Positions 476 through 1,345 of a stretch of 64,000 nucleotides of DNA are shown in pieces. The stretch is taken from the IMG/VR virus record IMGVR_UViG_3300045988_145100, positions 1 to 64,000 of that record. One strand, given 5' to 3'. Origin of the DNA: a virus. Below the pieces are notes generated by a model that was given only the letters and a program-made list of their open reading frames with translations, had not been told where the DNA came from and made no database searches. A program made the position numbers and the translations under genes. How positions within the stretch are numbered: position 1 is the first letter of the stretch; the number at the start of each line of letters is the position of its first letter.

Positions 476-1345
476 ATGAGTATTAGAGATGAACTTGGAA
501 CACGCATGAAAACATTTTATGAAGCAGTTCCAGATACTAAGTTAGTAAAGAGAATGCCAGTTGCTATTAGAATTGATGGCAAGGCATTTCATACCTTTAC
601 ACAAGGTTTTAAACGACCTTTTGATGAAGTATTAATTAAAACAATGTAGCAGACAACTCAATATCTGTGTCAGAATATCCAAGGTTGCGTGTTAGGATAT
701 ACACAATCAGATGAAATCACTTTAATCTTAGTTGATTATCAAACATTAACAACAGAAGCATGGTTTGATTATCGAGTAGAAAAGCTTTGTAGTGTTCCTG
801 CAAGTATGGCGACAATGGCTTTTAATAAATTTTTAAATAAAAATGTTGTAAATTATACATTTTCAATAGCCGGAGAAGAAGCTAGATATGGTAAAACTGA
901 ATGGACATATGAAGATGAGTATTTAAAAACCTTAATGAAAGCTGTTGATAAAGGAGCAATATTTGATGCTCGTTGCTTTAATATTCCAAAAGAAGAAGTA
1001 ACTAATCTTATCTATTGGCGGCAGTTGGACGCTTCTTGTAATTCGGTTCAGATGGTAGGTCAGGCTTATTTCTCTCAGAAAGAATTACAGGATAAATCAT
1101 GCAGTGACATCCAAGATATGCTTATGACTAAAGGTGTTAATTGGAACGATTTACCGACTTATCAGAAGAGAGGAAGCTGCTGTGTAAAAAATAAGATTGT
1201 TATTGAATCTAATGGTATTACCGCAGATGTGTATTTAAGAGATACTTCTAAATCAGCAAATAAGTGGATTATTGATACAAATATTCCTATTTTCAAGGGT
1301 GAAGGTAGAGAATATATTGGTAAATTAGTATATGTAGGAGATTAA
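476..1345 (+). CDS. Thg1-like tRNA-His guanylyltransferase, interrupted by an in-frame TAG at 647-649
   Basis: ATG 476 and ORF 689..1345 are in the same frame, separated only by TAG 647-649. The N-terminus VAIRIDGKAFHTF...KRPFDEVLIKTM and the following GYTQSDEITLIL match the Thg1 palm motifs (VVRLDGRNFHRF...KPND...LM; YGQSDEYSFVF). Confidence 0.6.

Follow-up and report, generated by a model that had tools for sequence, protein, structure and literature searches.

Evidence for a recent, most likely null amber allele of a bacterial-type Thg1-like gene in a clonal phage lineage

A reading frame that matches a Thg1-like protein (TLP) and is broken by one amber codon raises the question of whether this codon is translated, regulates translation, marks a gene in decay or is an error in the sequence. 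An earlier note, made from the letters of the window alone (the window being the whole stretch of 64,000 nucleotides analysed here), had left four options side by side: a suppressor tRNA, regulated readthrough, pseudogenisation and a base-call error. Our analysis favours the third, understood as a nonsense mutation of very recent date, and we assign a probability of about 0.8 to the reading that the window carries a recent C>T amber allele of an accessory bacterial-type TLP, most likely null, in a clonal phage lineage.

The frame runs on the + strand from ATG 476, which is preceded at a distance of 5 nt by the strong Shine-Dalgarno sequence AAAGGAG, to TAA 1343-1345, and comprises 289 codons, with TAG 647-649 at codon 58 as its sole break. 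The ORF listing of the window cuts it in two, 476..649 (57 aa) and 689..1345 (218 aa, with a GTG start). Whatever residue is placed at codon 58, the joined 289-aa product matched Pfam PF04446 (Thg1) at 104.4 bits (E 5.3e-30, cut-off 29.2) in one stretch, residues 10-171 aligning with profile positions 3-130 of 130, and no gap was found at the stop. The earlier note had placed ATG 476 and the ORF 689..1345 in one frame that reads as Thg1 throughout, and had seen the TAG as the only interruption, at an aligned and ungapped position; the frame and the Pfam alignment across the stop confirmed both observations. Moreover, when codon 58 is read as Gln, the joined translation agrees at every residue (100% identity) with P0001, a database protein of 289 aa, so that the joined frame represents a true gene and no chance juxtaposition. 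The uninterrupted two-domain ORF is present in this sister allele (P0001/L081), and in the window it is interrupted at codon 58. An exact-protein look-up of the 218-aa ORF (P0044) returned no record; its JGI annotation is 'tRNA(His) 5'-end guanylyltransferase'.

Comparison with solved structures gave the Bacillus thuringiensis TLP (BtTLP, 4KGK) as the best relative, with a whole-protein E of 1.2e-56 and both domains aligned. The catalytic carboxylates of this family are D29, D76 and E77 in hTHG1 and D30, D75 and E76 in BtTLP (PMC3701042), and D34, D79 and E80 of the phage protein align opposite those of BtTLP. These alignments firmly establish that the protein belongs to the family and where its catalytic residues lie. 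Human, yeast and Candida Thg1 were matched at E 1e-6 to 1e-9 only, against 1e-56 for BtTLP. HINNLYN, a eukaryote-specific motif that serves anticodon recognition (PMC6471195), is absent from the joined phage protein, which reads WRQLDASCNSVQM opposite BtTLP WRQQDASKNSISM. By these sequence features the phage protein is classified as a bacterial-type TLP and not as a eukaryotic Thg1. TLPs add Watson-Crick-templated nucleotides onto 5'-truncated tRNAs (PMC6471195).

The presence of such a gene in a phage is unsurprising, because Thg1-like genes are common in phages. A tblastn search found them in 162 GenBank phage records, and among the matches listed most are annotated as tRNA-His guanylyltransferase. 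Thg1 was noted in Bacillus phage Bc431v3 as early as 2013 (PMC3601020). The earlier note, which did not know Thg1 from phages, was thus mistaken on this point. No functional study of any phage TLP was found in the searchable literature.

The reality of the allele was judged from assemblies. The exact 57-aa truncated product is recorded on 8 contigs from JGI, ENA and Logan assemblies, some of which may share provenance (the neighbouring runs ERR636395 and ERR636396 may belong to one study), and six of the contigs are 50-200 kb long. Two contigs match the window with 100% identity, an ENA MEGAHIT contig (ERZ27250556; L084) over 10.6 kb and a Logan contig (ERR636396; L085) over 7.8 kb. The recurrence of the product on 8 contigs makes an assembly error improbable, and the earlier note's base-call error, as an event in a single assembly, is unlikely for the same reason. 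If the true genome had CAG and the TAG were a sequencing or assembly error, the change would be a single transition, and two of the other four differences from the sister contig described below are homopolymer lengths, which are classic error sites; set against the 8 contigs and the two perfect matches, we regard this as highly improbable. The caveat that formally stays with the TAG allele is a systematic error common to assemblies of one read set. When IMG/VR and the metagenome set were scanned for the exact pattern with Y at position 647, the former gave no match and the latter just two short contigs, both with CAG.

The origin of the TAG could be read from a sister contig of another sample, L081 (Logan ERR11570316), which is 99.94% identical to the window over positions 1-7853. 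Within the Thg1-like gene the two differ solely at position 647 (C versus T), and codon 58 of L081 is CAG. In 81 related loci this codon is CAG (68/81) or CAA (13/81), and neither TAG nor another stop was found in any of them (0/81); Gln is likewise encoded at the site in the outgroups L005, L032, L082 and L083. The CAG of the near-identical L081, together with the Gln codons of the relatives, therefore identifies the TAG as a derived C>T transition that converted Gln58 to amber. On these alignments we consider both the mutation and its derived polarity well established. Since codon 58 is a sense codon in all of these relatives, a conserved regulatory readthrough, in which orthologues would keep a stop at the same site, is excluded, and the regulated readthrough proposed in the earlier note falls with it. 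Its pseudogenisation option, taken as a very recent nonsense mutation, agrees with the CAG of L081 and with a Gln codon in 81/81 relatives.

It could be argued instead that the phage decodes TAG as an amino acid, either through a code 15-like reassignment or through an amber suppressor tRNA of its own. Some crAss-like and Lak phages do decode TAG, and Gln, the residue at this site, is the usual amber reassignment. A greedy set of 73 ORFs called under code 11 covers 93% of the window, and these ORFs end in TAA (53), TGA (11) or TAG (9, the Thg1 fragment counted in). With the Thg1 fragment set aside, TAG terminates 8 of the remaining 72 ORFs, and the Thg1-like gene is the only one of the 73 to be interrupted by TAG. 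The large late and structural genes in and beyond the window, with products of 859, 1812 and 3110 aa, are called whole under code 11. Thus, neither the many in-frame TAGs nor the avoidance of TAG as a terminator that mark recoded phages were found. The search for other in-frame TAGs that the earlier note had suggested gave no second interrupted gene in the 64-kb window. The only other TAG that joins two ORFs in frame, TAG 1506-1508, links a 53-aa ORF (1347-1508) with a 131-aa ORF. Readthrough at this site was considered and rejected, as the TAG overlaps AGGAGA, the Shine-Dalgarno sequence that precedes ATG 1521, and this configuration was seen in near-identical genomes alone; we judged the in-frame placing to be a coincidence. 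Selection for tandem back-up stops behind TAG was likewise rejected, the median distance to the next stop being 6.5 codons after TAG and 6 after TAA.

Neither ARAGORN nor Rfam detected tRNA genes in the window. The reachable flanks (9.5 kb upstream and 7.9 kb downstream of the window) were scanned as well, and ARAGORN reported only four tRNAs, Pro-UGG, His-GUG, Gln-UUG and Cys-GCA, of which Rfam confirmed the first three. No tRNA-CUA was found across the window and its two flanks, about 81 of about 145 kb or 56% of the genome; the other 44% (about 63.5 kb) could still hold one, which is a point in favour of decoding. A census of in-frame stops at well-aligned positions, by all-against-all tblastn of 82 loci, revealed Q>TAA in L020 and L052, E>TAA in L071 and L054, Y>TAA in L069, E>TAG in L055, W>TAG in L023, and Q>TAG in L053 and in the window. 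Because TAG replaces several different amino acids, these stops are best explained by mutation or error and not by reassignment; across the relatives, in-frame stops take the place of Gln, Glu, Trp and Tyr. With an ordinary use of TAG as terminator, a single interrupted gene and no stop at codon 58 in any relative, we consider decoding extremely improbable, and the suppressor tRNA option of the earlier note is not supported in the 56% of the genome scanned. As judged from ORF structure and stop usage, the window uses the standard code. The CAG>TAG allele should therefore not be counted as evidence for code recoding in surveys of phages.

The nonsense mutation preferred here would have severe consequences for the protein. 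The stop falls between D34 upstream and D79/E80 downstream. The 57 codons before it (476..646) hold the motif VAIRIDG with R32 and D34, the first of the catalytic carboxylates, and the 231 codons after it, with the final TAA (650..1345), hold D79 and E80, in GYTQSDE, and the C-terminal domain. The 57-aa fragment is predicted to be unable to act alone. A product restarted at GTG 689, where gene callers begin, would be without R32 and D34, and the start has just a weak AAGG 4 nt before it. As the 57 residues retain D34 only and D79/E80 lie downstream, the allele is most likely null and at best strongly hypomorphic, and it is on this ground that we infer a loss of function.

A leaky hypomorph is unlikely in our view, even with several facts on its side. 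According to this explanation, a near-cognate Gln-tRNA of the host or the phage tRNA-Gln(UUG), which is encoded 5.7 kb upstream of the window, reads UAG-C at a low rate and yields a little of the exact wild-type TLP, perhaps enough of it. The ancestral residue is indeed Gln, suppressor-free E. coli inserts Gln at UAG, a C 3' of the stop makes a weak termination context, and the TAG lineage has been assembled repeatedly. Natural stop readthrough, however, usually stays far below 1%; no structure or motif that would promote it was identified, no relative keeps the stop as a selected regulatory device would require, and the two frameshifts in neighbouring genes of the same lineage, described below, look like plain loss.

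Damage to Thg1 is not confined to this lineage. A separate TAG interrupts the Thg1 of L053 (65% identity) at codon 17 (10049-10051 of L053), where 55 relatives have Gln. An 80-aa truncated Thg1 (P0124), whose final residues diverge from the family, is present on 5 contigs, one of them in NCBI, and a frameshift is apparently the simplest reading of its truncation. At least two further lineages of the clade have thus suffered damage to Thg1 independently, and hundreds of relatives have it intact, a distribution that points to a gene generally kept in the clade and occasionally lost.

Two further genes are disrupted in the TAG lineage. The window and L081 differ at five sites in positions 1-7853, and polarisation with L005 and L032 showed that four of the five changes are derived in the window lineage; all four alter proteins and three destroy ORFs. 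In the Band_7/SPFH (prohibitin-like) gene (5761..7354, + strand), an extra T in the T-run 5783-5788 causes a frameshift 9 codons past ATG 5761. L081, L005 and L032 have five Ts and an intact 530-aa ORF, and the window, L084 and L085 have six. A derived Asp>Gly change is found at 6243 in the same gene. In a 114-aa ORF of unknown function (7458..7801, + strand), an extra A in the A-run 7532-7537 leaves a called product of only 37 aa; this ORF is whole in L081, L005 and L032 and appears in the window as two tblastn pieces in different frames. Directly downstream of the Band_7/SPFH gene, an 835-aa protein (7895-10402) matches Pfam PF11978 (major vault protein shoulder), with a faint Vault_3 match. 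Exact copies of this protein are carried by contigs of the TAG lineage only.

This pattern fits relaxed selection on a block of accessory genes, with too few events for a claim of adaptive loss. It might alternatively be supposed that the Thg1 amber and the frameshifts in the SPFH gene and the 114-aa ORF were together a selected loss of accessory functions, for example as an escape from sensing by a host defence system. The four protein-altering changes out of four, three of them destructive, would agree with this, as would the occurrence of the lineage on more contigs than the intact sister allele. The same applies to the contrast with the tail region, where L087, a contig from another sample, differs from the window by 1 SNP in 10 kb, although L081 and L087 come from different samples and the contrast between regions is not clean. 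There are just four events, and +1 changes in homopolymers are both the commonest spontaneous indels and a frequent sequencing error. In addition, we know of no defence system that senses TLP. We therefore hold adaptive loss to be quite unlikely.

The sequence of events may be outlined as follows. A bacterial-type TLP gene among the early or accessory genes of a circularly assembled phage of about 145 kb acquired a single C>T change that turned Gln58 (CAG) into amber in one clonal lineage, so that translation from ATG 476 would stop after 57 residues. The mutation arose so recently that the gene shows no other damage. Loss of TLP is apparently tolerated by the phage, and two neighbouring accessory genes are frameshifted in the same lineage. 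As the TAG allele is on more contigs (8) than the otherwise identical CAG allele (1), the lineage is not obviously unfit. The persistence of a widely assembled gut-phage lineage without intact TLP suggests that the enzyme is conditionally dispensable.

The window has a G+C content of 30%, with genes on the + strand up to about 47.4 kb and on the - strand from there on. The window-identical ENA MEGAHIT contig ERZ27250556 k119_273532 is 145,040 nt long, and one segment of 119 nt in the window, as long as the assembly k-mer, matches both of its ends, which indicates a circle of about 144.9 kb. Among the products encoded in the window are an RNA ligase, a PIN-PhoH protein, a type II topoisomerase, NrdD, tail proteins and a DnaE/YorL-type polymerase with 40% identity to that of SPbeta. 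Megablast of window positions 1-6000 against GenBank phages gave no match. Relatives of the Thg1 with 50-63% identity were found in Lachnospiraceae and other Clostridia, including the complete chromosome of Lacrimispora sp. HJ-01. The host is probably a member of the gut Clostridia, and prophages are among the members of the clade.

Just upstream of Thg1 lies a gene for a YqeY/GatB-like small protein (38..463, + strand; Pfam PF09424, E 4e-15). A conserved partnership of YqeY and Thg1 was considered and rejected, since the homologue occurs in only 8 of 86 Thg1 loci, always beside or overlapping the Thg1 match; the adjacency is not conserved past the closest relatives. The RNA ligase gene (11387..12646, + strand) was identified by PHROG 968 (E 1e-54) and Pfam RNA_ligase. 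It is accompanied by a polynucleotide-kinase-like AAA_33 gene (14567-15367; a weak Pfam match) and a Metallophos_2 gene (15371-15931; precomputed Pfam), and a second metallophosphoesterase gene (3872-4609) lies in the same early region as the TLP. The ligase, the AAA_33 protein and the two metallophosphoesterases may constitute an RNA or tRNA repair set, possibly with a function in counter-defence. Farther downstream, the topoisomerase II B-subunit-like gene is split into 16757-18028 (HATPase/GyrB) and 19206-19757 (Toprim/GyrB_C), a GIY-YIG endonuclease ORF (18230-18961) lies between the pieces, and the A-subunit-like gene (19772-22105) comes next. The split looks like one of the homing-endonuclease or intron type; no Rfam intron model scored over threshold at 16757-22105.

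The tRNA genes of the upstream flank bear on what the intact enzyme might do. The cluster of Pro(UGG), His(GUG), Gln(UUG) and Cys(GCA) genes (L084 3623-4400) lies 5.1-5.9 kb upstream of window position 1 and is also present in L081, L005 and L032. The tRNA-His gene (L084 3699-3770) is located 5.8 kb upstream of the window and 6.3 kb upstream of the Thg1-like gene. In bacterial tRNA-His, G-1 is normally encoded and stands opposite C73. The phage tRNA-His has U at -1 and A73, is encoded without G-1 or CCA, and lies 2 nt from the discriminator of tRNA-Pro. The tRNA-His of Fusobacterium phage Fnu1 (L089 3070-3140) also has A73, but with G at -1 and an encoded CCA. BtTLP expressed in yeast places U-1 opposite A73 (PMC6471195). 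As 3'-5' nucleotidyltransferases, TLPs repair the 5' ends of tRNAs or extend them; we infer such a role in tRNA repair or in the maturation of tRNA-His for the phage enzyme, and the A73 tRNA-His may be its natural substrate. A constant association of phage TLPs with phage tRNA-His was rejected: Staphylococcus phage PMBT8 has a TLP and no tRNA gene in the surrounding 40 kb. The link between TLP and tRNA-His is for this reason a hypothesis and not a rule.

A more elaborate form of leakiness can be built on this substrate. If the amber allele were alive, low-level reading of UAG as Gln by a near-cognate Gln-tRNA could provide traces of wild-type TLP that serve the atypical tRNA-His by adding or restoring its -1 nucleotide. 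We rate this as very unlikely. Were it true, the TAG lineage would represent a hypomorph that arose in nature, and a phage-specific maturation pathway for tRNA-His would be indicated. Under the preferred reading of a recent null allele, the A73 tRNA-His without G-1 offers a concrete candidate-substrate hypothesis for the intact allele.

Phage Thg1-like genes were already known. The amber codon goes back to a textbook nonsense mutation, ordinary in kind and seen very soon after it arose, and has little import as an amber-codon story. The finding has modest value as a natural TLP knockout, and the more interesting question is the function of phage TLPs.

Comparison with known systems places the locus as follows. 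With recoded phages, in which TAG is read as Gln by a suppressor tRNA, it shares an in-frame TAG at a Gln position; it differs from them in the restriction of this TAG to a single site and a single lineage, in the use of TAG as a terminator, in the lack of a tRNA-CUA in the 81 kb scanned, and in late genes that are not recoded. With eukaryotic Thg1 it shares the PF04446 fold family, and the phage tRNA-His has a eukaryote-like A73 and no encoded G-1; the match is however weak (3OTB, E 5e-7, N-terminal domain only), and the phage protein is without HINNLYN. Nucleotide addition by TLPs is Watson-Crick-templated (PMC6471195), unlike that of eukaryotic Thg1, which adds G-1 opposite A73. The likeness is closest to BtTLP (4KGK/4KGM): the three catalytic carboxylates and R28 are conserved in the phage protein, and both proteins have the TLP-type stretch WRQxDASxNS and neither has HINNLYN. 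The phage protein differs in an extra insert of about 38 residues (about 123-160), which is variable within the clade, and in being phage-encoded and cut at codon 58 in the TAG lineage, with its activity predicted. Among phages, Bc431v3 gp143, Fnu1 gp147 and Bacillus phage G gp378 belong to the same family, with 42-45% identity over 97-99% of the length and 45% for the Fnu1 TLP. Their genes likewise lie in early or nucleotide-metabolism regions, but are intact. In Fnu1, as in the phage of the window, a prohibitin/SPFH gene and an RNA ligase gene lie near the TLP, the former in Fnu1 at a distance of three genes.
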